A DNA stretch of 64,000 nucleotides from Clostridium sp. CAG:417 (GTDB taxonomy: Bacteria > Bacillota_I > Bacilli_A > RF39 > UBA660): positions 25,485 to 89,484 of the forward strand of contig FR890374.1 in assembly GCA_000432835.1 (NCBI GenBank), in the 5' to 3' direction. The notes beneath the pieces are model-generated. The model saw only the letters and a list, made by a program, of their open reading frames with translations, was not told the DNA's origin and made no database searches. The position numbers and the translations under genes were made by a program. Below, piece by piece: positions 4,316 to 63,900 of the stretch. Position 1 is the stretch's first letter. The number at the start of each line of letters is the position of its first letter.

Positions 4316-5215
4316 TTATTTTTTATTTTCTATGAATCGTGCATAATATTCCTCAAAAGAAATATTGTTTTTGTGGATGTATTTAGCTATATCTTTTCCA
4401 ACATAACGATAATGCCATGATTCATATATATATCCTGTTTCATTTACCTTGTCTTTAGGAAATCTTAAGATAAATCCATACTTATAGGCATTTTCTTGCA
4501 TCCAGTTAAATTCTTCGGTATTTTCGAAATCTGTATAAACTTTTTTTCCATTATGTATGTCAACAGCAAGTCCTGTTTGATGTTCCGAATATCCTGGTCT
4601 TGCTGAGTATGTATCTGCTTCTTCTTTGCTATTTTCTTCGGCATATTGATTATAAAGTTTTACTTGATACTCATAACTTCTGTAACTAGAGGTAACGAGT
4701 ATGGTCATGTTATCTTTTTTTGCTGCATTAATTAATTCTTCAAGCGCTGATTTAGCTACGTTAGTTAATTTCATACCACTTCTAGAATATGATAAAGGAA
4801 GACTTTCAAGATTTTCTGGAACGTATTTTTCACCAACATAATAGTATTTATTTACTAAAATATATTCTTTATTTAAATATTTTGAAGGAATTATTTTTTC
4901 ATAAAATTTATAATCTAGGTTCATGTTGACGTTTAAAACTATCTGTTTATCACTAAGATTATTATTTTTCTTTTTATAATTAATATATCTATCTAAGTAG
5001 TTATAGTTAAAATAATTAACTTTTTTATCAATGTTATTTAGTTTTTCTAATTTAATTTCTTTTGTACTTAGTGTTTTTTGAGGTTTATTTTTATGACTTA
5101 TTTCTTTAACTACCATTCGTGTTAGAAGCGTTACTGATCCTATAAGGACAATTATAGTAAGACAAAGAATCATAAAATTTTTTTTATGTAGTTTCAGTCT
5201 CTTTTTCTTTTTCAT
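4316..5215 (-). CDS. VanY-family D-alanyl-D-alanine carboxypeptidase, tandem paralog
   Basis: Same motifs as its neighbour (SSYRSYEYQ, SEHQTGLAVDI, ESWHYRYVGKDIAKYIH). The catalytic half is about 55-60% identical to the adjacent gene. It has its own TM anchor. Confidence 0.8.
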   Translation of the reverse strand: MKKKKRLKLHKKNFMILCLTIIVLIGSVTLLTRMVVKEISHKNKPQKTLSTKEIKLEKLNNIDKKVNYFNYNYLDRYINYKKKNNNLSDKQIVLNVNMNLDYKFYEKIIPSKYLNKEYILVNKYYYVGEKYVPENLESLPLSYSRSGMKLTNVAKSALEELINAAKKDNMTILVTSSYRSYEYQVKLYNQYAEENSKEEADTYSARPGYSEHQTGLAVDIHNGKKVYTDFENTEEFNWMQENAYKYGFILRFPKDKVNETGYIYESWHYRYVGKDIAKYIHKNNISFEEYYARFIENKK

Positions 5216-5378
5216 ACTCTCACCTTAATTATATAATAACATTAAATACTTCAATTGTTTTTTATTTGTGCTTATTTTTACGTCAACTTTATTTAAATTA
5301 ATAGTTATTAATATTAATTATATTATTTATGAGATATACTTTTGTTATGTAGTAAATATTATTTGGTAGGAATTTTTT

Positions 5379-6611
5379 ATGGAAGAAGAAAAGAAAAAAA
5401 GTCGAAAAAAGATAATTTTTTTAGTGGGCATAATTTTTTTAGTAGTTTTTATTTTAAGTGTTGTTATTTTTTTACTTTTAAAGGCTAACTATTACAATAA
5501 TTATGTTTTAAAAAGTATATATGTAGATAAATATAATATATCAGATGTTAAGTTTAATGATTTAAATGATAAAATAGATCAAATTTCAGCAGAAATTTTA
5601 AAGAAAAATATAAGTTTGAATGTTTCATCTAATACTTTTAGTGCTTCATATGAGGAACTTGGAATAGCACTTGATAAAGATAGTTTGATAAAAGAAATTA
5701 AAGATTATCAAAAGGGGTTGGGAATAAACAAACTTGAATATTTTTTAGGAAATAAAAAACATGTTTTTAAATATAGGCTAGTTGTGGATGAGGAAAAGTT
5801 ACGAATAAAATTACAGGAATTTAAAAATAAATATGACTTTAGTGGTAGTGATTGGAGATTTGAAATTGATGATAATAGGAATGTAAAATTTGTAGCTGCT
5901 CAAAATGGTATTTTTTTAAATATTGATAAATCGGTGGAAGTTATTAAAACGGAGTGCAAGAAGGGAAATCTTAAAAATTCAATTACATTAAAATATGATG
6001 TTTTAGAAAAAGCAAATCGTGACAGTTATAAATATATTGATACTAAGATATCTGAATTTACAACTTTATTTAATCCTTATATATCTAGAGCTACAAATCT
6101 AAAAATGGCTTTAAGTCATATAGATGGTGCGGTGATAGAACCGGGCGAAGTGTTTTCATTTTATAAATATGCTGGTCCATATAATAGAAAGGGTTATGTT
6201 TTTTATTATGAATATGTTGGTAATGGGGTTTGTCAAATAGCAACTACTATATATAATACTGCCTTATTAGGTGGTTTGGAAATAGTTAGACGTTATCCTC
6301 ATGCCGCTTTACCGGTATACGTTCCAGGTGGGCTTGATGCGACCGTAGCAAGTTACGCTAATGGTGGATATGTTGATTTCCAGTTTAAAAATACATATAA
6401 ATATCCTATATATATTTCAGCATATGCAAAGGGTGGCGAAGCTCATGTTGATTTTTGGTCTAACAGTATGGCAAAAGAGGGTAAAACTTATACCACAGAA
6501 TCAGTAAAAATAGGGTATTTAGGATATAATACATATTTGCATGTTTTTGAAAACGGTCAAGAAATAGAAAAACGTAAAATAGCAACAACCTGGTATAGCA
6601 AAAGCAGCTAA
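5379..6611 (+). CDS. VanW-domain protein
   Basis: N-terminal TM and a C-terminal VanW-like region ([20 protein letters not shown]...[28 protein letters not shown]). It is transcribed divergently from the VanY pair. Confidence 0.7.
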
Positions 6612-25119: not shown

Positions 25120-26340
25120 TTGAAAAGAATAATATTTATATTTATTTTTTGTTTGTTGGTAATGCCTATTAGTGTTTTAGCTCAAGAAACTAATACTAAT
25201 AATAGTCAAGATAATAATAATACAAACACTAATGTGGAAAAAAATAGTGAAAGTGAAGAAACATCTCTTATAAGTAATGCTGTTAGTGGTCTATTAATGG
25301 AAGAGTCTACTGGGGAAATTATTTTTGAAAAAGATAAGGATAAACAGGTAGCGGTGGCTTCTATGACAAAGATGGTCGCTCAAATAATAATATTAGAGAA
25401 CATAGAATCAGGAAATATTAAATGGTCTGATGTAGTAACAGCTTCTAAAAATGCAGCAGATATGGGTGGCTCACAAATATATTTAGCAGCTAATGAAAAG
25501 ATGACAGTAAGAGATTTATTTAAGGGTATTTCTATGGCTAGTGCTAATGATGCGGTGGTTGCTATGGCAGAATATATAGCAGGAAGTGAGGATAAGTTTG
25601 TCAAAAAAATGAATGACAAAGTAAAGAAGTTAGGACTTAAAAACACGGTATTTAAAAATGCTACCGGACTTGATGAAGATGGACATTTTTCTAGTGCCTA
25701 TGATATGGCAATAATTGCTAGAACATTACTTAGTCATCAAGAAATATTAGAATTTTCTGGAGTTTATGAAGATTATTTAAGAGTTAATACACCAAACAAA
25801 TTTTGGCTTGTTAATACAAATAAATTAGTAAGAACTTATAATGGAGCAGATGGACTAAAGACTGGGCATACGGATAATGCTAAGTACTGCTTGGCAGTGA
25901 CAGCAAAACGAGATGGAATGAGACTTATTGCAATAGTTTTGGGAGAAGATAATGCTAAAGTAAGAAATAGTGAGGCAGCTCAATTATTGGATTATGGATT
26001 TAATAATAAGCAAATTCAATTGATTAAAAAGAGTACGGATGAAATAAAGAAAATTAAATTAGACAAGGCAACAGAAAAGTCTATTACTATAGTGCCAAAA
26101 TATGATGTTAGTATCCTTAAGGATAAAGGAATTAGTAACACTAAATATAAAACGAGTGTAAAAGTAGACAAGATAGTATTACCTTTGAAAAAAGGTGATG
26201 TGGTAGGAAAAATATCAGTATTAGATAATAATAAAGTAGTGGCAACACAAGATTTAGTAGCTACTAAAAATGTTGATAAATTAAACTTTTTTCAATTGTT
26301 TATGAAAAATATTACAAAAATTAGTAGTGGTATATTATAG
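25120..26340 (+). CDS. dacF: D-alanyl-D-alanine carboxypeptidase (PBP5/DacF-like, peptidase S11)
   Basis: Signal peptide; SxxK active site ASMTKM; SxN (SANDA) and KTG (LKTGHT) motifs. The position upstream of spoIIAA-sigF matches the Bacillus dacF-spoIIA synteny. The gene symbol is assigned from synteny only. Confidence 0.8.
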   Translation: MKRIIFIFIFCLLVMPISVLAQETNTNNSQDNNNTNTNVEKNSESEETSLISNAVSGLLMEESTGEIIFEKDKDKQVAVASMTKMVAQIIILENIESGNIKWSDVVTASKNAADMGGSQIYLAANEKMTVRDLFKGISMASANDAVVAMAEYIAGSEDKFVKKMNDKVKKLGLKNTVFKNATGLDEDGHFSSAYDMAIIARTLLSHQEILEFSGVYEDYLRVNTPNKFWLVNTNKLVRTYNGADGLKTGHTDNAKYCLAVTAKRDGMRLIAIVLGEDNAKVRNSEAAQLLDYGFNNKQIQLIKKSTDEIKKIKLDKATEKSITIVPKYDVSILKDKGISNTKYKTSVKVDKIVLPLKKGDVVGKISVLDNNKVVATQDLVATKNVDKLNFFQLFMKNITKISSGIL

Positions 26341-26496
26341 ATAAAATTTAATCATAATACTTAAATTTATGTAATATTGTTAGTAGTTAACATTCCTTGA
26401 ATATATGAGTAATAAATAATATTTGTTTTCACAAAATAAAAGTTTCGCATTGAACAAAATAGAAATTTGTAATATAATGTTAGAGACATTAAATGC

Positions 26497-26535
26497 TGTC
26501 TAGTCTATGTCTGCGACTAGATGGTATTTTTTTAT
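26497..26535 (+). terminator. Predicted Rho-independent terminator/attenuator hairpin
   Basis: A 7-bp stem (TCTAGTC ... GACTAGA) is followed by TGGTATTTTTTTATTT. Confidence 0.45.
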
Positions 26536-26583
26536 TTATAGAAAAAATACCGATAACTTTTGAAAGAAAGGAGGAGGTATATA

Positions 26584-27060
26584 ATGCCTAAAACAAAGTT
26601 TCAGAACTTTATATTTACTTTAATAACTACTGTTGTAATGGCTTATTGTATGGTAGTTTATAGCGTAGCAATAAATTTATCTGAGGGTTTAATCAATCAA
26701 ACTTTTCTAATTGCCTTAAAAGAGTTTCCCATTGAAGGGATAATAGTATTTGTATTAGCGTTTTTTGTTGCAAGTCCTATTGCAAAAAAATTGGCATTTA
26801 GAATAGTAAATCCTAAAGAGGATAATAAAATGTTTGTTATTGTATCAATTCAAACATTTACAGTGCTTATTATGGTAGGATTAATGAGTATATATGCTTT
26901 ATTTGCACAATACTTAATAAATAGTAATATTGTATGTAATTACTTGATATTATATTGTAAGAACTTTATAATGGCTTATCCTTTACAAATCTTTTTTGTA
27001 GGACCATTAGTAAGAAATATTTTTAGAATAGTATTTAAAAAACAATTAAAACAAATATAG
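26584..27060 (+). CDS. Small polytopic membrane protein, function unknown
   Basis: ATG follows a perfect AAGGAGGAGG RBS. Four TM helices. Confidence 0.55.
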   Translation: MPKTKFQNFIFTLITTVVMAYCMVVYSVAINLSEGLINQTFLIALKEFPIEGIIVFVLAFFVASPIAKKLAFRIVNPKEDNKMFVIVSIQTFTVLIMVGLMSIYALFAQYLINSNIVCNYLILYCKNFIMAYPLQIFFVGPLVRNIFRIVFKKQLKQI

Positions 27061-27175
27061 TAAAAACTTAATTTATATGAAGAATTATTATAGATGAAAA
27101 ATCGCATTTGGCGATTTTTATTTACTTTGAATATATTAATAAGTATAATTATTTTAGATAATGGAGTTTGATAAT

Positions 27176-27904
27176 ATGAAAAGATCTAGAAAAATATCAA
27201 TAGGAACAATAGTATTGTTTGTAGTTTGTTCATTAATATATTATAGAAATGATTTAGCTGTTTTAATTGGAAATAAGACAAATAGTATTAAAGTTGTCAA
27301 TGTTAATGATAATACTTCTTTAGAAAATAGTAATATTCCTGATTATAGTGGTAATAGCTATATAATTATAAATAATAATAAACCAAACTTTTCTGATAAT
27401 GATATGTCATTAACTGGTGAAGTTTATAGTGAACTTGATTCCTTAGGAAGATGTGGAGTAGCTTTTGCAAGAGTTGGAAAAGATACTATGCCTACAGAAG
27501 AGAGGGGGAGTATAGGAATGATAAAACCATCTGGATGGCATACAATAAAGTATGATATTGTAAATGGTAAATATCTTTATAATCGTTGTCATTTAGTAGG
27601 ATATCAATTAACAGGTGAAAATGCTAATCCTAAAAACCTTATTACTTGTACAAGATATATGAATACTGTAGGAATGTTAGAATTTGAAAATAAAGTAGCA
27701 TCATATGTTAAAAAGACAAATAATCATGTATTATATAGAGTTACTCCAATATTTCGTAATGATAATTTATTAGCAACAGGGGTTCAAATAGAAGCAGAAT
27801 CAATAGAAGACTTAGGTAAGGGAATTAGTTTTAATGTTTTTGTTTATAATGTTCAACAGGGAATAGAAATTGATTATAAAACAGGTGATAGCAAGTTAAA
27901 GTAG
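27176..27904 (+). CDS. Membrane-anchored DNA/RNA non-specific endonuclease (EndA/NucA-like, DNA-entry nuclease family)
   Basis: Signal-anchor, then the nuclease core NRCHLVGYQLTGENANPKNLITCTRYMN. I read this as the DRGH-type beta-beta-alpha-metal nuclease motif with its downstream Asn. Confidence 0.7.
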   Translation: MKRSRKISIGTIVLFVVCSLIYYRNDLAVLIGNKTNSIKVVNVNDNTSLENSNIPDYSGNSYIIINNNKPNFSDNDMSLTGEVYSELDSLGRCGVAFARVGKDTMPTEERGSIGMIKPSGWHTIKYDIVNGKYLYNRCHLVGYQLTGENANPKNLITCTRYMNTVGMLEFENKVASYVKKTNNHVLYRVTPIFRNDNLLATGVQIEAESIEDLGKGISFNVFVYNVQQGIEIDYKTGDSKLK

Positions 27905-28018
27905 GAAGTATTACTTCCTTTTTTTGTTATATTTTGTCGAAAGAATAATTTGTAATGTTTTGTCGAATTGGTATAAAAAAAATAAAAAATGGTCTATATT
28001 TTTATAGAGGTGAAAATA

Positions 28019-28347
28019 TGTTATATACACAAGTTATCAATGGAATACTATATATGGGTTTTGAAGGGGTGATTAATGATCAGGCAATATTAGAATTAAG
28101 TCGGGAAATAGATTATATGTTATATAGACAAGGAATAAATTATTACGCAATTGATTTTAATAATCTAAATATTGAAAGTAGTAAATTTATTAATTTATTT
28201 CAAAATAAGTTAGTAGAAATATTTTTAAGATGTGGTAGTGTAGTTTTATGTGGAATGAATAATATTATGAGGAAGGTAATAGGAGATAGAAACAATCTTT
28301 TTTATGTAAATAATAAGGCAGATATATTTAAAGTTTTGAGTTTATAA
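28019..28347 (+). CDS. spoIIAA: Anti-sigma-F factor antagonist (STAS domain)
   Basis: Matches B. subtilis SpoIIAA block by block (ILYMGFEGVINDQA..., IDFNNLNIESSKFINLF for the phospho-Ser region DSSGLG, SVVLCGMNNIMRKVIG). RBS AGAGGTG upstream. Lies directly upstream of sigF. Confidence 0.7.
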
Positions 28348-28356
28348 AGGAGAAAT

Positions 28357-28992
28357 ATGGATACTATTTTACAATACGAAAATTTAGTGAGAAGCATAAT
28401 TAGTAAATACACATATTATGGTGATTATGAGGATTTATATCAAGTGGGAATGATGGGACTTGTAAAGGCATGTAAAAATTATAAAGAGAGTACAGCAAAA
28501 TTTTCAACTTATGCTTATAAATATATATTAGGAGAAGTAAATACATTTATTAGAGAGAGTCAACCTGTAAAAATTAGTAAGGATATTATTAGACTTAATA
28601 AACAAATAGAAAAATGTCGTGAATTATTACATCAAAAATTACAACGAGAACCTAGTGATTTAGAAGTTTCACTTTTTTTGGAAATAGATGAAAATAGGAT
28701 AAGAGAAGTTAAAAACTTAATGCAGAAAGTAGAAAGTCTTGATTCCGTAAAAAGTGAGGATGAAGATAGTTATTATAATTCTATTATCACCTATGATGAT
28801 AATTTAGATTCAATGCATTTAGATTTACAAGAGCAGTTAAAAAATTTAAATGATGATGAGAAAAAACTTATTTATGCAAGATATTATGATGGTTATACAC
28901 AAAGTGAATTGAGTAGAGAACTTGGAATGAGCCAAGTACAAATTTCTAGGAAAGAATCAAAAATTTTACAAAAACTAAAGGTTAATCTTTAG
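28357..28992 (+). CDS. sigF: Sporulation sigma factor F-like (group 3 sigma-70)
   Basis: Region 2 (DLYQVGMMGLVKACKNY...FSTYAYKYILGEV), region 3 (VKISKDIIRLNKQIEKCRE) and region 4 (YTQSELSRELGMSQVQISRKESKILQKLK) match B. subtilis SigF very closely (GISQVQVSRLEKKILKQIK). The N-terminal region 1.2 is short. Confidence 0.8.
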   Translation: MDTILQYENLVRSIISKYTYYGDYEDLYQVGMMGLVKACKNYKESTAKFSTYAYKYILGEVNTFIRESQPVKISKDIIRLNKQIEKCRELLHQKLQREPSDLEVSLFLEIDENRIREVKNLMQKVESLDSVKSEDEDSYYNSIITYDDNLDSMHLDLQEQLKNLNDDEKKLIYARYYDGYTQSELSRELGMSQVQISRKESKILQKLKVNL

Positions 28993-29044
28993 TTTTTTTG
29001 TATATAAAGAAATTATTGGTAAAGAATAATACTGGTGATTAAAA

Positions 29045-29491
29045 ATGATTAATAAAAAGTATGATGAGATAGTAGAAAGACATAAACCTACAGAACAGAG
29101 AAGTAAAAATTCATTGATTGCATTTTTAATAGGAGGACTAGTAGGTGCAATTGGAGAGGGATTAATCCAAATTTATTGTAGTATTTGGCATATTTCTAGA
29201 ACTGTAAGTTCTGTTTATATGATTATAACCTTAATTTTTATAGCTGCTTTAGCAACAGCGATTGGTTTTTTTGATAAATGGGTTAATTTTGCAAGATGTG
29301 GTTTATTAATACCTATTACTGGTTTTTCACATTCAATGATGAGTGCGGCTTTGGAATATAAAAGAGAAGGACCTATATTTGGTATCGGAAGTAATACATT
29401 TAAATTGGCTGGTTCGGTAATTGTTTATGGAGTAGTATCAGCTTGGACCTTTGGTCTCATTAGGCTAATTATAGGAGGTAGCTTGCTATGA
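29045..29491 (+). CDS. spoVAC: Stage V sporulation protein AC
   Basis: Small 4-TM protein of about 150 aa, conserved SpoVAC pattern, first gene of a spoVAC-AD-AE operon. Confidence 0.8.
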   Translation: MINKKYDEIVERHKPTEQRSKNSLIAFLIGGLVGAIGEGLIQIYCSIWHISRTVSSVYMIITLIFIAALATAIGFFDKWVNFARCGLLIPITGFSHSMMSAALEYKREGPIFGIGSNTFKLAGSVIVYGVVSAWTFGLIRLIIGGSLL

Positions 29492-30480
29492 CATTTAAAT
29501 ATGATAAAGTCTATCTTAATGAAACTTATACTGTTGTAGGTCCATATGAAGATAAAGGACCACTTGGAAAATATTTTGACAATAGTTATGAAGATTTATA
29601 TTGTGAAGCTGATTCTTGGGAAAAGGCAGAAACTAAGTTATTAGAAGAAAGTATGAAAAAAGCACTTAGAAAAAATAAATTAACAAAAGAAAATATTGAT
29701 TTAGTTATTTCTGGTGATTTATTGAATCAGGTAACTTCTTCTTGTTATGCGGCAAGTAAAATAAATAAGCCATTTTTAGGAATTTATAGTGCATGTGCTT
29801 CAAATGTAGAAGGACTTATTATTGGATCAAATTTTATTAACAGTGGAATTATTAATAATTGTTTATGTGGTACTAGTTCACATAATATGTCTAGTGAAAA
29901 ACAATTTAGAAATCCTACCGAATATGGTGCACCTAAACCTGAAACTGCTACCTTTACAGCAACAGGTGGAGCGAGTGCTGTGATTTCTAATAAAAAAAGT
30001 AATATTAAAATAGAGAGTGCTACTATCGGGAGAATTGTAGATTATAATCAAAAGGATGCTTTAAATATGGGTGCAGTGATGGCTTGTGCAGCTGCAGATA
30101 CATTAAAAAGACATTTAGATGATTTAAATCGTAAAGAAGATTACTATGATTTAATTTTAACTGGTGATTTAGGTCTTTATGGTAGAGAAATATTGAAAGA
30201 GTTTATGATGAAAGAACATAAAATTAATATAAGTTGTAACTATAATGATTGTGGTGTAATGCTTTATGATTTGGAAGAACAAAAAGAAGTCTTGGCCGGA
30301 GGTAGTGGTCCTGTATGTAGTGCATTGGTATTATATGGTTTTATTTTAAATGAAATGAAGAAAAAGAATATTAAAAAAGTTTTATTAATTGCTACTGGGG
30401 CATTATTTAGTCCAACTATGCTTTATCAAAAAGAAAATATTTTAAGTATTGCTCATGCAATTAGTTTGGAGGCTATATAA
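29488..30480 (+). CDS. spoVAD: Stage V sporulation protein AD (thiolase-like fold)
   Basis: 330 aa, KASIII/thiolase-like (GIYSACASNVEGL, GGSGPVCSAL), overlapping start codon. Confidence 0.8.
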   Translation: MTFKYDKVYLNETYTVVGPYEDKGPLGKYFDNSYEDLYCEADSWEKAETKLLEESMKKALRKNKLTKENIDLVISGDLLNQVTSSCYAASKINKPFLGIYSACASNVEGLIIGSNFINSGIINNCLCGTSSHNMSSEKQFRNPTEYGAPKPETATFTATGGASAVISNKKSNIKIESATIGRIVDYNQKDALNMGAVMACAAADTLKRHLDDLNRKEDYYDLILTGDLGLYGREILKEFMMKEHKINISCNYNDCGVMLYDLEEQKEVLAGGSGPVCSALVLYGFILNEMKKKNIKKVLLIATGALFSPTMLYQKENILSIAHAISLEAI

Positions 30481-30833
30481 TGGAAAAAATACTTTTATCA
30501 TTCTTATTTTGTGGAGCAATTTGTTTAATAGCGCAAATAATTTTAGATAATACAAAACTTACTCCTGGACATATAACAAGTATATTTGTTGTACTTGGAG
30601 CCTTACTTGATACATTTAATATTTATGATATTATTGTAGAAAAAGTAGGTGGTGGTGCGATGGTACCAATTACTAGTTTCGGTCATCAACTAATTCATGG
30701 TGGACTTCATCAGGCCGAGGGTGCTGGAGTATTTGGTTTAGTAATGGGAATGTTTGACTTAACGGCTTCTGGAATAAGTGCAGCTATCATATTTTCATTT
30801 TTCCTTACTTTAATATTTAAACCTAGAAATTAA
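30480..30833 (+). CDS. spoVAEb: Stage V sporulation protein AE (SpoVAEb)
   Basis: 117-aa membrane protein, SpoVAC paralog, start overlaps the spoVAD stop. Confidence 0.75.
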   Translation: MEKILLSFLFCGAICLIAQIILDNTKLTPGHITSIFVVLGALLDTFNIYDIIVEKVGGGAMVPITSFGHQLIHGGLHQAEGAGVFGLVMGMFDLTASGISAAIIFSFFLTLIFKPRN

Positions 30834-33924: not shown

Positions 33925-34396
33925 TATGAAAATAAAATATTATGGTGATAAAATTGAAAAAAGCACTAGAGCAATATCATTATGTGGACCAACTCCTAGA
34001 AATAATAAAGTAACTAGTTGGAGAAAAGAAGCTTTGAATATATTACAAAATATTAATTATGATGGAATTGTGTATGTTCCGGAGCTAAAAGATGAAACGC
34101 CAGTATTTAAGACAAAGGATGAACAAGTATCTTGGGAGAGAGATTGTTATATGAATTCAAATGTATTATTGTTTTGGGTACCAAGGAAATTTCCATCAAT
34201 GCTAGGCTTAACTACAAATGTAGAATTTGGTTATTGGCTAAAAAGTAAAAAATGCATATATGGTAGACCAGATGGTGCTTATAGAACACACTATTTGGAT
34301 TGGTTATATAATTTAGAATATAATAAAAATCCAATAAATTCATTAGAAGAACTGTTAAAACAAGCAGTAAAAATGAGTAAAGGAGAGCAACTATGA
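33925..34396 (+). CDS. Nucleoside 2-deoxyribosyltransferase-like / dNMP N-glycosidase-fold protein
   Basis: ATG follows GAGGTGAGG. ISLCGPTP matches the YxAGPxF nucleoside-binding motif of the NDT/Rcl fold. TNVEFGYWL places a Glu where the catalytic nucleophile sits. Confidence 0.55.
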
Positions 34397-34962
34397 AAAA
34401 TATAATGATATTTGGGATATGTAGAACCGGGAAGACTACCTTTTCAAAAATGATACAAAAAGAATATAATAACTATCAAATTATAGAAGTTGACACAATC
34501 ATTTCTGCATTACAAAAAACTGTTCCTAATGTTCCAATTGGATTTATTCACGATAATTTAAAAGAAAATAGATTGCCGGAATTTTTAAATTTGTTTATAC
34601 AAAAGAATATTAATAAAAACGGGAAAGAACTAGGTTTTATTATAAATGGGGATTCTATCTTGCCAGAAGATTTATCTAAATATTTTGATTTAAAAGATAT
34701 GATTGTTTATTATTTTGTAACTGAAAAGTTATCTCCTGAACAAATTCTAGAAAATTGTAGGAAGTTTGATTCAAAAGAAGAATGGACTACTAGAAGGTCC
34801 GATGATGAATTATTAAATCATTTTAAATTTTATAAAGATATAGAAAAGAAAATTATAAAAGATTGTAAGATGTATAATATAAAATGCATTGATACATCTG
34901 AAAACAGGCAAATATTATTTAACCAGTTATTGGATGAGGTAAAATGTGAGTTGAATATATAA
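34393..34962 (+). CDS. P-loop NTPase, (deoxy)nucleoside/nucleotide kinase-like
   Basis: Walker A IFGICRTGKTT; about 190 aa, typical of small nucleoside or NMP kinases; coupled to the upstream gene by overlapping stop/start. Confidence 0.55.
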   Translation: MKNIMIFGICRTGKTTFSKMIQKEYNNYQIIEVDTIISALQKTVPNVPIGFIHDNLKENRLPEFLNLFIQKNINKNGKELGFIINGDSILPEDLSKYFDLKDMIVYYFVTEKLSPEQILENCRKFDSKEEWTTRRSDDELLNHFKFYKDIEKKIIKDCKMYNIKCIDTSENRQILFNQLLDEVKCELNI

Positions 34963-38027: not shown

Positions 38028-39167
38028 ATGAATTTTGATTTAAGCTGGTTTAAGACAGTACCAGGTTTACTTATTACTTGTGGTGTTGTTTTATTAATAA
38101 TAGCTTTAATAATATTTATTGTTACTTCTAAAAATAATAAAAATGTAAAGAAGGAAGCTCAAAATAATAATCCAAAGGGAGAGGATACTACTCCTAAAGA
38201 TAATGTTCAGCCTGTTTCTGATAGTGTTTCTAGTGAAACAGTTGTAGCAGTTAATACGGATGCTGGTTCTAAGACATCTGTAGAAACTCCTATGCAAAAT
38301 GCTACTCCGGTTACTGAAAATGTTGGAATAGAATCTCTTCAAAATATGCAACCTACACAGACAGTTAATCCAACTCCTATTGAAGTTGAGACTGTAAGTA
38401 GTGCTCCAGTAGTTGAAGATACTCCAGCTCTATCTAGTCCTGTAGTAAATAATACTACTGTTGATGCTTATCAAGCAATGGCTAATAGTGCTGCTATTTT
38501 AAATGATAATTATGTTCAAGAACCAGTAGCTCCTGTTAGTCAAAGTGTAGAACCAATTGAAGTAGCTCCTGAAGTTACTCCAGTAATGAATAGTGTAACT
38601 GCTCCAGCAACTCCAGTTGAAGTTGCTCCAATTCTTGATACTCCAGTAGTTCAACCAGAAGTTTCTTCTCCAATTAATCCTGAAGTTATTTCTCCAAGTG
38701 TTGATGCTATTCCAACTCCAGTTGCTCCTACTGTTTCTAGTGTAAGCAATGAACAACATGCTATATATGGAGGAGTTAGTCAAATTTTACCTAATGATAT
38801 GTCAATCAATACTGGCTCTAGTAATCATCAAATTTATGGTGGGGCTAATCCTTTAGAGAATACGCAATCATTACCAATTATGGGTAATACACAACCTGAA
38901 ATGTCTACTGCACCAGTATCAGTTGCTCCTGAAGTAGCTCCAGTTGTTCCAGATATTCCTAGTGTAAATGCTACACCAATAATTCCAAATGTATCAGTAA
39001 CACCAGTGGAGGAAAATATAGTTATTCCAACACCTGAAGTTTCAACACCAGTTGTTCCAAGTGGATTAGAGCAACAAAATCAAGTACCTATAGTTCCTAC
39101 TGGTATACCATCAGTACAAGTTACAGCAACGGCGCCTATAATGCCAGCTGATAATCAACAATTATAA
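38028..39167 (+). CDS. Membrane-anchored low-complexity Pro/Val/Thr/Ser-rich protein
   Basis: Single N-terminal TM, then about 340 aa of degenerate P-V-(A/T/S)-P-E-V repeats (VAPEVTPV, VEVAPIL, PEVSSPINPEVISPS). Probably extracytoplasmic. Confidence 0.6.
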   Translation: MNFDLSWFKTVPGLLITCGVVLLIIALIIFIVTSKNNKNVKKEAQNNNPKGEDTTPKDNVQPVSDSVSSETVVAVNTDAGSKTSVETPMQNATPVTENVGIESLQNMQPTQTVNPTPIEVETVSSAPVVEDTPALSSPVVNNTTVDAYQAMANSAAILNDNYVQEPVAPVSQSVEPIEVAPEVTPVMNSVTAPATPVEVAPILDTPVVQPEVSSPINPEVISPSVDAIPTPVAPTVSSVSNEQHAIYGGVSQILPNDMSINTGSSNHQIYGGANPLENTQSLPIMGNTQPEMSTAPVSVAPEVAPVVPDIPSVNATPIIPNVSVTPVEENIVIPTPEVSTPVVPSGLEQQNQVPIVPTGIPSVQVTATAPIMPADNQQL

Positions 39168-41117: not shown

Positions 41118-41205
41118 TCAATTATTAGTATATGATGCTTATACTTTTTCTTGAATAAATCTTTATTTTGTGGTATTATATAGCACATAAAAAGAGGTGA
41201 AGTAT

Positions 41206-42063
41206 GTGTTCTTTAAGAAAAACAAGAATGATTTTGAACTAAAAACAGAAGAAGATAGTTCATATTATGAATATGAAGATGATACTGACTTTTTTAGATT
41301 TGATAATGAAGAGCCTATCAATTCTTCTTTAAAATATAAGGCAGAATCTAATATAGATAGTTTAGATAATAATAATGATAATTCAGACTATGTTTCAACA
41401 GATTTTTATAATGGTTATGATCAAGTAGATGAAGATGACAATGCAGATGATAATGATAATAATACTACTTATACTGATGACTCTACTAAGTCTGTTGGTG
41501 GTATTATGTTAAAAGTTTTAAACTTTTTCTTAATTCTAGTTATGGCAGGTGCTTTTTTAGTTGTTTTTGATGTTGTAATGGTTACTAAATTTAATGTAGG
41601 ACCTATTTTTGCTATAAAGGTGAAAACATATAATGATGGTGGAACTAAGGAATATGCTGGTATTTTTTATAAGGTGATTAAATATAAGCAGACTAATGGA
41701 AGACGTGATATGGTTTTAGGAAGTTATAAGCTTTCTTATTCTGGTGAAGTTTATAAAAAATCAGTGTTAGATCTTGCTATATTATATCGTGATGATTTTA
41801 CTAATTTTTCACTTTTAGAAGGAAAATATGTTGTTGTTACGGGAAAAGTTTTAAGTGTTTCTAAAGAGAAGCAAGTTGTTAAATTAATATATGAAGATAG
41901 TGATAACAAATATCAAACGATTGTTACATTTAAGATGGATAAAGATGCTAATTATGATGAACTTAAAAAGGGAAATACAGTAAAAATTGCTGGTGTTTTA
42001 GATGATTATAGTGATAATAAGCAGGGAATAAATATTAATATGATAAATGGTACTAGAAAGTAG
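41206..42063 (+). CDS. Hypothetical protein with acidic disordered N-terminus, one TM and a C-terminal globular domain
   Basis: ORF with periodicity. Asp/Asn/Glu-rich first 100 aa, TM at NFFLILVMAGAFLVVFDVVMV. The start codon is uncertain (GTG at 41197 or 41206). Confidence 0.5.
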   Translation: MFFKKNKNDFELKTEEDSSYYEYEDDTDFFRFDNEEPINSSLKYKAESNIDSLDNNNDNSDYVSTDFYNGYDQVDEDDNADDNDNNTTYTDDSTKSVGGIMLKVLNFFLILVMAGAFLVVFDVVMVTKFNVGPIFAIKVKTYNDGGTKEYAGIFYKVIKYKQTNGRRDMVLGSYKLSYSGEVYKKSVLDLAILYRDDFTNFSLLEGKYVVVTGKVLSVSKEKQVVKLIYEDSDNKYQTIVTFKMDKDANYDELKKGNTVKIAGVLDDYSDNKQGININMINGTRK

Positions 42064-59213: not shown

Positions 59214-59392
59214 TTATAAAAAGTCTCGTTGTTTGGATATAATAACGGGATTTTTATTTTTATAACTCGATTAAAATTATTTACTAGTAAAGTAAAAAGT
59301 GTTAAAATATAAGCCAAATTTTATTCTTAGTGTTATATTGGTATTATATTAGGTGACACATGTAACTGTTTTTAATAGGTGGGTTTGGCATA

Positions 59393-60436
59393 ATGGAGGA
59401 AAATATGAATACAAGTGAAATATTTTTAAATATTGATAATTTGCCGGGAATTTTAAATAAATCTCAATTATATGAATTATTAGAAAAAGCAAAGGCTAAT
59501 GATAAAACTGCAATCAAAACAATAGTTGAACATAATATTAGACTGGTTTTGTATGAGGTAACAAATAGATTTAAGTCGGTTGAATATGATAGAAAAGATT
59601 TGGTTTCTGTTGGAAATGTTGGCTTGATGAAGGCAATATTAACATTTGATAGATCAAGAAATGTAGAATTTGCAACTTATGCAATTAGATGCATCGATAA
59701 TGAAATATTGATATTCTTAAGAGATGTAGCGAAAAATCAAAATGTTGATAGTTTAGAACGGGCAATTAAACAAGATAAAGAAGGCAATGAATTAAAAATT
59801 GAAGATACAATAAGTGATGAAACTGATATAGTTGATGAATATGAGAAAGATATAACCTGTAAAATTATACGAGAAATTATAAAAGAATTACCTGATCGAG
59901 ATAGAAAAATAATTATGCTTTATTTTGGATTTTATAATAAAAATTATACGCAGAAAGAAATAGCTCATATAATGTTAATTTCACAGGAATATGTTTCAAA
60001 ATTAATAAGGAAAAATTTGAAAAAAATAGAAGAACAGTTGGTTAAAAAAGATATTATAGTTATAAATTCAATGGGAGAATCTAGAAAGAAAAATACATCA
60101 AGAAAAGTAAAATCAATTTATACTATTTTTAATAATTATACTAAAAAACAAGTAAATTTAGTATTGGAGAGTTTGACAGAAGAAGAAAAGTTATTAGTGA
60201 AACTAAGATATGGCAAGGATTTAGATAATCCTGTATCAGTAAAATTGAGTATGGAACAACTTTATACATTCTATAACTCTTTAATTCCTAAAATGAGAAG
60301 GCTTTTACTTAAACTAGATAAAGGAATACACTTATTAAGTGTGCCTTCAGAAAATTCTCAAAAATATTATTGCTCTATGCAAGTATCTAAGGAAAATTTT
60401 GATACACCCAGGCTACTTAAAAAAATCAGTAAATAA
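59393..60436 (+). CDS. Sigma-70 family (group 3, sporulation-sigma-like) factor with about 130-aa C-terminal extension containing a second region-4-like module
   Basis: Region 2 (DLVSVGNVGLMKAILTFD...FATYAIRCIDNEIL) and region 4 (LPDRDRKIIMLYFGFYNKNYTQKEIAHIMLISQEYVSKLIRKNLKKI) lie within the first 215 aa or so. The extension then carries LTEEEKLLVKLRYGKDLDNPVSVKLSMEQL, which also resembles a region-4 helix-turn-helix. Confidence 0.7.
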   Translation: MEENMNTSEIFLNIDNLPGILNKSQLYELLEKAKANDKTAIKTIVEHNIRLVLYEVTNRFKSVEYDRKDLVSVGNVGLMKAILTFDRSRNVEFATYAIRCIDNEILIFLRDVAKNQNVDSLERAIKQDKEGNELKIEDTISDETDIVDEYEKDITCKIIREIIKELPDRDRKIIMLYFGFYNKNYTQKEIAHIMLISQEYVSKLIRKNLKKIEEQLVKKDIIVINSMGESRKKNTSRKVKSIYTIFNNYTKKQVNLVLESLTEEEKLLVKLRYGKDLDNPVSVKLSMEQLYTFYNSLIPKMRRLLLKLDKGIHLLSVPSENSQKYYCSMQVSKENFDTPRLLKKISK

Positions 60437-63183: not shown

Positions 63184-63900
63184 ATGAAGATTGGAAAATT
63201 TGAAGTTAATAAAAAGTTATTTATAACCTTTGCTGTAGTTGTTGGTTTAACTATAATTTTACTTCTAGTAAGACACTTTGTTAATAATAGATATGAAAAA
63301 TATAAATTAGATAAAAATGAAGATTATATCTATGATTATGTAACTTATAGTGCTAGTGAAACTAGTATTCCTTATATTAACTTAAATACGGATTTTGCTA
63401 AAGTACTTAATGGTCAATTGGAAAAACTTTCTTCAAGTTATAAAAATTCTAATAGCTCTACTAATTCTTTAAGTTATCGTTTTAATGTTTCTGGTAATTA
63501 CTTATCATTGGTGTTAATATTTAAAAAAATGGATAGTAGTAATAGATTACAGTTTGATTTTAAGAGTTATGTTTTTGATTTAAGTGATGGTGCAAGAGCA
63601 CTTAGTGATACAGAAATACTTAACTTATTTAACATTGATAATAATTATGTAGAAAAGCAAATTAATAATAAATTTAAAAATAAATATTTAGATGAAGTAA
63701 AAAAAGATATTATATCTAGTTCAAAATGTGATTATAATAATTGTTATTTGAAGCTTAGGGAAGTTAGTGATTTATTAAGTGGCGTCAATTATTATATTGA
63801 AAATGATAGTTTAGTTGTATATAGATCTTTTCAAACATATTCTATATATGATGAACAGGATTATTTTACAAGAGCTGACTTTAGGTTTTTAATTAAATAG
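63184..63900 (+). CDS. Hypothetical membrane-anchored protein
   Basis: N-terminal TM, 238 aa, no recognised motif. Confidence 0.45.
   Translation: MKIGKFEVNKKLFITFAVVVGLTIILLLVRHFVNNRYEKYKLDKNEDYIYDYVTYSASETSIPYINLNTDFAKVLNGQLEKLSSSYKNSNSSTNSLSYRFNVSGNYLSLVLIFKKMDSSNRLQFDFKSYVFDLSDGARALSDTEILNLFNIDNNYVEKQINNKFKNKYLDEVKKDIISSSKCDYNNCYLKLREVSDLLSGVNYYIENDSLVVYRSFQTYSIYDEQDYFTRADFRFLIK

Follow-up and report, generated by a model that had tools for sequence, protein, structure and literature searches.

A SigE/SigK-like sigma factor with a region 4-related tail module, a minimal member of an apparently undescribed family in uncultured gut Bacilli

The 64,000-nucleotide stretch of Clostridium sp. 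CAG:417 contig FR890374.1 analysed here, hereafter the window, carries a gene for an alternative sigma factor that continues past its core into a C-terminal tail module, which we term modA. Profile comparisons indicate that modA derives from region 4 of an RpoD-like sigma factor and no longer has the residues with which that region reads the -35 element, and the same module recurs in a large family of proteins, most of which end in a second module, modB. Within this family the window protein is the minimal form, with one modA, no modB and a disordered end. We assign a probability of about 0.5 to the reading that modA is a portable protein-protein docking unit, a mimic of sigma region 4 (sigma4), and not a DNA reader.

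The sigma core is defined by two regions. Region 2 (core binding and -10 recognition; 59525..59725, +) was recovered by Pfam Sigma70_r2 at residues 45-111, with 43.7 bits against a cut-off of 24, and was modelled by AlphaFold2 with a predicted local distance difference test score (pLDDT) of ~90; a profile search of the PDB matched it to the sigma2 domains of SigF and SigK. The authentic region 4 (59879..60028, +), the helix-turn-helix (HTH) that reads the -35 element, was located by Pfam Sigma70_r4, charge analysis and AlphaFold2. Over the whole protein Sigma70_r4 scored 55.8 bits, above threshold, with its best stretch at residues 163-212, and the basic recognition-helix segment of this region has a mean charge of +3.6 across the family. 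Foldseek with the full-length model likewise matched sigma factors in holoenzyme structures. The original prediction, made from the letters of the window and its open reading frames (ORFs), had described a complete group-3-type sigma core, and this description is upheld by both Pfam profiles and by NCBIfam, in which SigK and SigE were the best models and aligned end to end with residues 11-219.

The NCBIfam scores fell under their cut-offs (165 versus 252 for the SigK subfamily, 159.7 versus 339 for SigE and 147.9 versus 298.65 for TIGR SigK). The alignments begin at model position 22 for SigK and 34 for SigE, so that the protein lacks the pro-sequence found at the N terminus of pro-SigK and pro-SigE; ~10 residues precede the conserved 'LP..L' motif. 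A core of the extracytoplasmic function (ECF) type was considered and rejected, the best models being SigK, SigE and SigF/G; TIGR02937 was passed at 90.8 bits, but this superfamily model is matched by all sigma-70 proteins and does not discriminate. We conclude that the window protein is an alternative sigma factor belonging to the SigE/SigK branch and that it is synthesised with no pro-sequence at its N terminus. With SigK and SigE it shares the end-to-end alignment, a region 2.4 motif (FATYAIRCIDNEIL) of the same type and a host with sporulation genes, but it scores far under the equivalog cut-offs and lacks the pro-sequence. In contrast to sigE, its gene does not lie in a spoIIGA-sigE-sigG order, its neighbours being a rhomboid protease gene and ireB-ruvX, and its modA tail falls outside the coverage of the SigE and SigK models.

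Behind the core, a lysine/arginine-rich linker (60050..60100, +; residues 222-233 predicted disordered, with an AlphaFold2 pLDDT <50) leads into modA (60101..60316, +), a module of 72-73 aa. A hidden Markov model (HMM) of modA from which the window copy had been excluded recovered residues 233-303 at 102.7 bits (E 4e-34), and the window copy scored 102.7-104.7 bits across HMM scans; in a shuffled-tail control with the same HMM, the best of 1000 sequences reached 9.8 bits. The family consensus is RKLQTIYEYF..YTKEQVD.ML.KLTEEE..LI.LRYGEDL.NPV..KL.KE...KFYG.LIPKMKRLL, and 12 of the 12 invariant alignment columns (pattern I-Y...L...RYG..L..P...Y..L...M...L) are kept in the window copy. From a 50-sequence alignment, AlphaFold2 predicted modA at a pLDDT of ~90 as a short helix (IYTIF), a second helix, a helix formed by LTEEEKLLVKLRY, a loop (GKDLDNPVSVKLS) and a long helix spanning residues 283-305. 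modA is a folded, conserved unit of four helices.

The 36-aa C-terminal end that follows (60326..60433, +; AlphaFold2 pLDDT ~33) is predicted disordered, shows no homology to modB and occupies the position held in longer relatives by a linker and modB. A modB hidden downstream or in another frame was rejected, since scanning the entire window with the HMM in all six frames gave no modB signal. Pfam and NCBIfam scans of the protein found no anti-sigma domain (zf-HC2, RskA, RsgI or similar), which lends no support to the earlier suggestion of a fused anti-sigma, and no long hydrophobic stretch that could form a transmembrane segment was seen in the tail, by eye only.

The relation of modA to region 4 emerges most clearly from profile-profile comparison. 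In hhalign, modA aligned with region 4 of the RpoD-like proteins of this clade at 93.9% probability (E 1.6e-7), a match that takes in helix 4.1, the RYG/NP loop and the first helix of the HTH, and more weakly (55%) with the protein's own class of region 4. When this alignment was extended, SLIPKMK of modA lay opposite TRERIRQ of the RpoD-like relatives, a segment that we take to hold the -35-contacting residues. Searched against the PDB, the modA profile matched SigA chains at the 3.2/4.1 junction (E 0.005), with the Staphylococcus aureus SigA region 4 chains 4g6d and 4g8x among the matches. Weak matches to Pfam Sigma70_r4 were obtained for 18 of 20 modA copies and to NCBIfam RpoD_Cterm for 17 of 20, the first copy aligning at model positions 162-194; single copies stay below the Pfam gathering score, and many weak matches in one protein can sum past it. 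On these comparisons modA is homologous by descent to sigma region 4 over helix 4.1, the loop and the first helix of the HTH, and sequence similarity places its origin in region 4 of an RpoD-like sigma factor, with subsequent loss of the -35-reading residues.

The second region 4-like block of the original prediction therefore stands as a conserved, region 4-related module (102.7 bits; hhalign 93.9%), but not as an HTH reader of DNA. Of the two candidate regions only the true region 4 passes Sigma70_r4; the tail alone reached 13.6 bits against a cut-off of 24.1 (E 0.049), over profile positions 1-21 only, and so falls short of the HTH threshold that the original prediction had itself set as a check. 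In place of an HTH, AlphaFold2 predicted one continuous terminal helix.

modB is a module of ~90 aa with the consensus ..LELLRTPSF..MM..L..KE..IISLKLGYIDGKYFST.SIA.FLGIE..EVI.TTKKVLL.YKE. Its profile aligns with the entire region 4 of Thermus aquaticus sigma-A (1rio, 1ku3; E 6.7e-5) and with the family's own region 4 at 91.7%. AlphaFold2 modelled the tail of a homologue as two separate confident domains, modA and modB, with a disordered linker between them, and Foldseek with such an A+B tail model returned as top matches only sigma-A region 4 structures (1ku3, 1ku7; for 1ku3 a template modelling score of 0.76 and a root-mean-square deviation of 1.8 Å over 55 columns), the aligned module being unspecified by the tool. 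The recognition-helix segment of modB has a mean charge of -0.4, compared with +3.6 in genuine region 4, and the net charge of the module is -3. Given this non-basic recognition helix and the SLIPKMK replacement in modA, both modules look like sigma4 derivatives without the DNA-reading chemistry. Compared with Sigma70_r4 and the T. aquaticus sigma-A structures (1ku3, 1ku7, 1rio), modB is alike over the whole domain, whereas modA is alike only in 4.1, the loop and the first HTH helix and lacks the recognition-helix determinants, with one long helix predicted in their place. The idea of a duplicated region 4 is thus apt for relatives that end in a complete sigma4-like modB but not for the window protein, which has none.

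The joining of sigma core and tail is a property of the gene. Near residue 215, neither a stop codon nor a Shine-Dalgarno motif is visible in the sequence. Several independent metagenome assemblies encode exactly this 343-aa protein amid the same neighbouring genes, and the cluster of the protein at 90% identity comprises 263 sequences, with full-length members of 343 aa, on hundreds of contigs of up to 1.3 Mb. Within the species the tail is conserved as much as the core, and both the length and the sequence of the 36-aa end are maintained. Furthermore, ~500 homologues, nearly all of them longer (450-550 aa), share the fused architecture. Together these observations exclude the frameshift fusion that the original prediction had named as a possible refutation.

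We determined the extent of the family by an exhaustive HMM search for modA among 1.84 billion representative proteins, which recovered the module in 1133 clusters at 50% identity (716 at E ≤ 1e-10). The exhaustive search was needed because a word-index search with the tail profile gave 22 short proteins only, several of them visibly cut pieces of longer genes. After the sigma core, homologues carry modA, a variable linker predicted to be disordered, and modB; a typical member consists of a sigma factor, 1 to ~15 copies of modA and a modB cap, and the largest arrays in the domain maps hold 14-16 copies. Architectures were counted in the 148 best representatives. A SigE/K-like core followed by (modA)n was found in 20 proteins with modB and 9 without, and an RpoD-like core preceded by an uncharacterised N-terminal domain of ~200 aa and followed by (modA)n in 33 and 11, respectively. 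No sigma core was detected in 40 proteins with modB and 31 without, and in four, all lacking modB (0 with), a Pfam check placed the modA arrays N-terminal to the sigma core.

The RpoD-like proteins (L016 4408-6750; L002 4288-6720; L024 3667-6846; P0143; P0161) measure 700-1700 aa and combine the ~200-aa N-terminal domain, which has no Pfam match and also occurs without a sigma core in P0152, with regions 1.2-4, 1-14 modA copies and modB. The largest example, P0161, has 1693 aa and 14 modA copies, and its length is unchanged across no fewer than 10 independent contigs. With regions 1.2, 2, 3 and 4 the RpoD-like proteins have the appearance of primary sigma factors. We nevertheless call them paralogues because their score against the RpoD equivalog model is 284 bits, for a cut-off of 572, and because one metagenome-assembled genome (MAG; L008) encodes a canonical tail-less SigA of 363 aa at 417-1505, ending in ...LRHPSRSRKLKDFLTD. 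The proposition that the housekeeping SigA carries the tail was downgraded on the same grounds. In L008 a tail-bearing SigE/K-like gene (4718-6094) lies 3 kb from the tail-less SigA, so not every sigma factor of the clade is tailed.

modA also occurs on cargo other than sigma factors. In many of the sigma-less proteins the initial methionine is directly followed by modA, and these (modA)n-modB proteins are therefore genuinely free-standing. An N-terminal modA is joined to a calcineurin-like metallophosphoesterase in L058 (5977-7335) and also in L056, L057 and L066; modA-modB is joined to TPR-like repeats in L034 (6732-8546); and in L041 (4444-8037) a TPR part follows an RpoD-like-A-B protein within a single ORF of 1198 aa. 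The DNA of the arrays forms near-perfect tandem repeats with a period of 225-231 bp and 82-91% identity (L012 1-1333; L024 5228-6444), and this identity at the DNA level indicates that the expansion is recent; repeat similarity of this order suggests that modA arrays may still be expanding and contracting. L012, with at least 6 modA copies and modB, has ireB-ruvX-DUF1292-mltG a few kb downstream, as the window gene does. Tail-bearing sigma genes and modA-only ORFs often stand in tandem (L024 2022-6846; L013 4326-9166; L065 5290-7530; L067 4043-6240), including a SigE/K-like gene beside an RpoD-like gene and four consecutive modA ORFs, an arrangement that points to local paralogue expansion.

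Each of the 67 genomic loci is from a metagenome assembly of gut or rumen origin, in almost every case one labelled as a MAG. The organisms are given as 'Bacilli', 'Tenericutes', 'Mollicutes' or 'Erysipelotrichaceae', labels that would be compatible with the uncultured orders RF39, RFN20 and ML615J-28 (PMC10868615). A phage or mobile-element origin found no support: modA was absent from IMG/VR contigs, no dedicated PHROG family exists for it, the PHROG matches being weak and to sigma-factor families, and the gene contexts are of the housekeeping kind. Neither Pfam nor NCBIfam yielded a model covering modA in our scans, and literature searches returned no paper on this architecture; the only source name noted for a tailed protein (P0023) was "sigma-70 family RNA polymerase sigma factor". 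The modA family thus appears undescribed, widespread and clade-specific. Residues 42-63 of P0145 show a weak match of modA to NCBIfam MPN403_MG284_C (27 bits against a cut-off of 37.3), and by this similarity a distant link to Mycoplasma proteins of no known function, in the Mycoplasmatales, is possible.

The beta-flap of RNA polymerase is the natural protein partner of region 4. Under the docking reading, modA would retain the protein-contacting parts of region 4 and would tether sigma factors and other cargo proteins to a common partner, for which the beta-flap, a sigma4-binding protein, or modA/modB units on other proteins are the candidates. Copy number would then set valency, the window protein having a valency of one. 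Sigma mimicry is established for PhyR-NepR, and AsiA, Rsd and PhyR-NepR together offer a conceptual precedent in which sigma-derived or sigma4-binding surfaces serve protein-protein control rather than DNA reading. The likeness to PhyR is conceptual and not one of sequence membership: the PhyR_sigma-like match (13.5 bits) falls on the real region 4, and the window protein has no receiver domain.

Several observations weigh against this docking reading. The full-length AlphaFold2 model has a predicted template modelling score (pTM) of 0.37, so that the model does not fix where modA sits with respect to sigma2 and sigma4. The terminal helix of modA is basic (mean +3), as are the linkers, and modA may therefore make non-specific contacts with nucleic acid. 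Across the 67 loci no conserved neighbour gene of tail-bearing genes was found that could supply a partner. The assignment to SigE or SigK stays under the NCBIfam cut-offs, and the gene order differs from that around sigE. Finally, the window copy lacks the modB that caps most arrays and could be partly decayed.

A broader version of the docking reading, possible but unlikely in our estimation, treats the (modA)n-modB arrays as sigma4 mimics with several binding units that add a level of transcription control peculiar to the clade, in which RNA polymerase, sigma factors and accessory enzymes would be gathered in hubs. The arrays, which sit on sigma paralogues, free-standing proteins and enzymes and have short basic linkers between their units, would bind the beta-flap, bind each other, or soak up inhibitors that target sigma4.

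Titration of proteins that regulate or inhibit sigma4, whether they are anti-sigma factors of the host or phage proteins resembling AsiA or ORF67, could also account for the family, with modA acting as a decoy that protects or buffers the real region 4; this is a special case of docking, and we hold it to be rather improbable. Such a role agrees with the closeness of modA to the RpoD-like region 4, at which inhibitors of this kind are usually directed, and with the highly variable copy number, the recent expansion of arrays and the existence of free-standing ones. T4 AsiA binds regions 4.1 and 4.2 of sigma70 (PMC2988021), and a truncated sigma70 fragment neutralises AsiA toxicity according to the title of a paper in the reference list of that article. 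Yet no anti-sigma factor or phage inhibitor was identified in these genomes, the absence of modA from IMG/VR contigs and of a PHROG family leaves no arms-race partner visible, a single copy such as that in the window would titrate very little, and the fusions to a phosphoesterase and a TPR protein would go unexplained.

Sigma factors are among the best-studied bacterial proteins, and most of the accessory domains known in them either lie at the N terminus (region 1.1, pro-sequences) or are the C-terminal sensor domains of ECF sigmas. The tail might be a cis-regulatory extension that folds onto sigma2, sigma4 or the core-binding surface and replaces the pro-sequence control of SigE/K, an explanation to which we give little credence. 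It would fill a need if the protein is a mother-cell sigma factor, which without a pro-sequence would require some other control, and the conservation of the tail within the species accords with it. Regulatory C-terminal extensions are documented in ECF sigmas, by a paper on how the ECF family evolved (PMC7671368) and by the abstract on SigG1 and its SnoaL_2 extension (PMC7730460); ECF41, ECF42, ECF56 and similar sigmas resemble the window protein in joining a sigma core to an extra C-terminal domain that is dispensable for promoter reading and thought to be modulatory. The window protein, however, is not an ECF sigma, and its extension is a sigma4-derived repeat in place of a SnoaL, TPR or zinc-binding domain, a repeat that is tandemly amplified, has a sigma4-like cap in relatives and occurs on non-sigma proteins as well. 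A module found on unrelated cargo, free-standing and N-terminal to some sigma factors is difficult to square with one dedicated partner inside the same protein, and AlphaFold2 gave no confident interdomain arrangement (pTM 0.37).

That the window lineage lost modB and was left with a single functionless modA is, in our judgement, improbable. The closest relatives (~60% identity) carry modA and modB, the last 36 aa are disordered, some short tail fragments have frameshifted ends (P0137, P0139), and modA-only forms recur in several sublineages, all of which would fit an evolutionary remnant. A remnant would scarcely be expected to keep every one of the 12 invariant modA residues, a high HMM score and a length of 343 aa fixed across hundreds of contigs; the within-species differences in the tail, three synonymous and one non-synonymous, lean the same way but are too few for statistics.

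The earlier proposal that the tail is a second DNA-binding module, reading upstream of or near the -35 element, fares worse and is very improbable. It draws on the homology of modA to region 4, the first HTH helix included, on the basic terminal helix and linkers, and on the full sigma4 fold of modB in relatives, whose profile matches 1rio/1ku3. modA itself is nevertheless unlikely to be a -35 reader because it has no -35-reading residues (SLIPKMK standing for TRERIRQ, with the -35-contact positions not conserved), ends in a single long helix with no HTH predicted, and stays below the Pfam region 4 threshold; modB in turn has a non-basic recognition helix and a net charge of -3, and the window protein lacks it altogether.

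An assembly or sequencing artefact that joined two genes is the least credible explanation, with a negligible probability: databases do hold sigma-only predicted proteins of 230 aa and tail-only ones of 86-121 aa, but the close 230-aa relative P0003 stops 4 bases from its contig end in non-native residues (CLLYTSDAADEL), and the fused ORF is identical in independent assemblies and the rule among the ~500 homologues. The terminal residues of P0003 suggest an adapter origin, judging from their sequence. Three further database entries deviate from the window protein. P0002 (570 aa; an ENA contig of 3177 bp) is a 95%-identical sigma with an N-terminal fusion of ~240 aa carrying Pfam PF20903; the join takes the place of the first ~24 sigma residues and looks like an assembly chimera. 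In the tail fragments P0137 and P0139 (96-98% identical), known from a few short contigs, the last 25-30 residues are frameshifted relative to the window end, owing either to sequencing error or to strain variation in the disordered end.

Collectively, the window gene is a modest, minimal member that exposes an apparently undescribed, widespread sigma-tail system. In an uncultured clade of gut Bacilli, region 4 itself has been stripped of its DNA-reading residues and amplified into arrays that are carried by SigE/K-like sigmas and RpoD-like paralogues, with the module also present on unrelated proteins; yet neither Pfam nor NCBIfam has a model dedicated to this family, which comprises 1133 clusters at 50% identity. 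Should modA dock on RNA polymerase or on sigma4-binding regulators, it would represent a new way of controlling sigma availability and a natural, portable binder at the sigma4 surface, and it would point to the way in which sporulation sigmas are governed in relatives of the Mycoplasmatales that have reduced genomes and lack the usual pro-sequence checkpoint. If the hub version proved correct, bacteria would have in these arrays their own equivalent of a scaffold built from repeats on the initiation machinery, with the window gene as the valency-one member.

At the level of the gene, the ORF at 59393..60436 (+) is uninterrupted and would encode 347 aa. The original prediction had taken 59393 as the start, which adds 4 aa and overlaps the ribosome-binding site; the true start is probably ATG 59405, because a Shine-Dalgarno motif (GGAGG; 59395..59399, +) read from the sequence lies 5 nt before it and because public gene calls for P0001, 100% identical to the window protein, give 343 aa. 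The ORF and these calls define a coding sequence at 59405..60436 (+) of 343 aa plus stop for the SigE/SigK-like sigma with its C-terminal modA tail. Upstream, a terminator-like hairpin (59219..59255, +; a 15-pair stem followed by a T-run) closes the rhomboid-protease gene, and the sigma gene therefore forms its own transcription unit. A candidate sigma-A-type promoter, TTTACT-17-(TG)TAAAAT (59280..59308, +), lies ~95 nt before the start codon; it is a consensus match only and a weak candidate, because such sites are no commoner than in shuffled sequence (10 found, 14.5 expected). The gene order comprises lspA, rluD and the rhomboid protease gene upstream and ireB, ruvX, DUF1292 and mltG downstream. 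Elsewhere in the window, four ORFs of 189-379 aa (34393-34962, 38028-39167, 41197-42063 and 63184-63900) have no Pfam match at E ≤ 1e-5.

The window also contains a sporulation cluster (25120-30833), which indicates that the organism, an uncultured gut bacterium with 27% G+C, has, or recently had, a sporulation programme. It opens with an S11 D-Ala-D-Ala carboxypeptidase gene, dacF-like by position (25120-26340). A 130-aa ORF without a Pfam match (27955-28347), read by eye as STAS/SpoIIAA-like, directly precedes a gene for a SigF/G-like sigma without a tail (28357-28992; SigBFG 150 bits, cut-off 234), and no ORF for a SpoIIAB-like kinase lies between the two. spoVAC (29045-29491), spoVAD (29488-30480) and a spoVAEB-like gene (30480-30833) complete the cluster. 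The tailed protein had earlier been proposed as a divergent sporulation sigma, and the SigF/G-like sigma, spoVAC and spoVAD nearby speak for this proposal; since the scores lie below the SigE/SigK equivalog cut-offs and the flanking genes are not those of sigE, such a role is only plausible.

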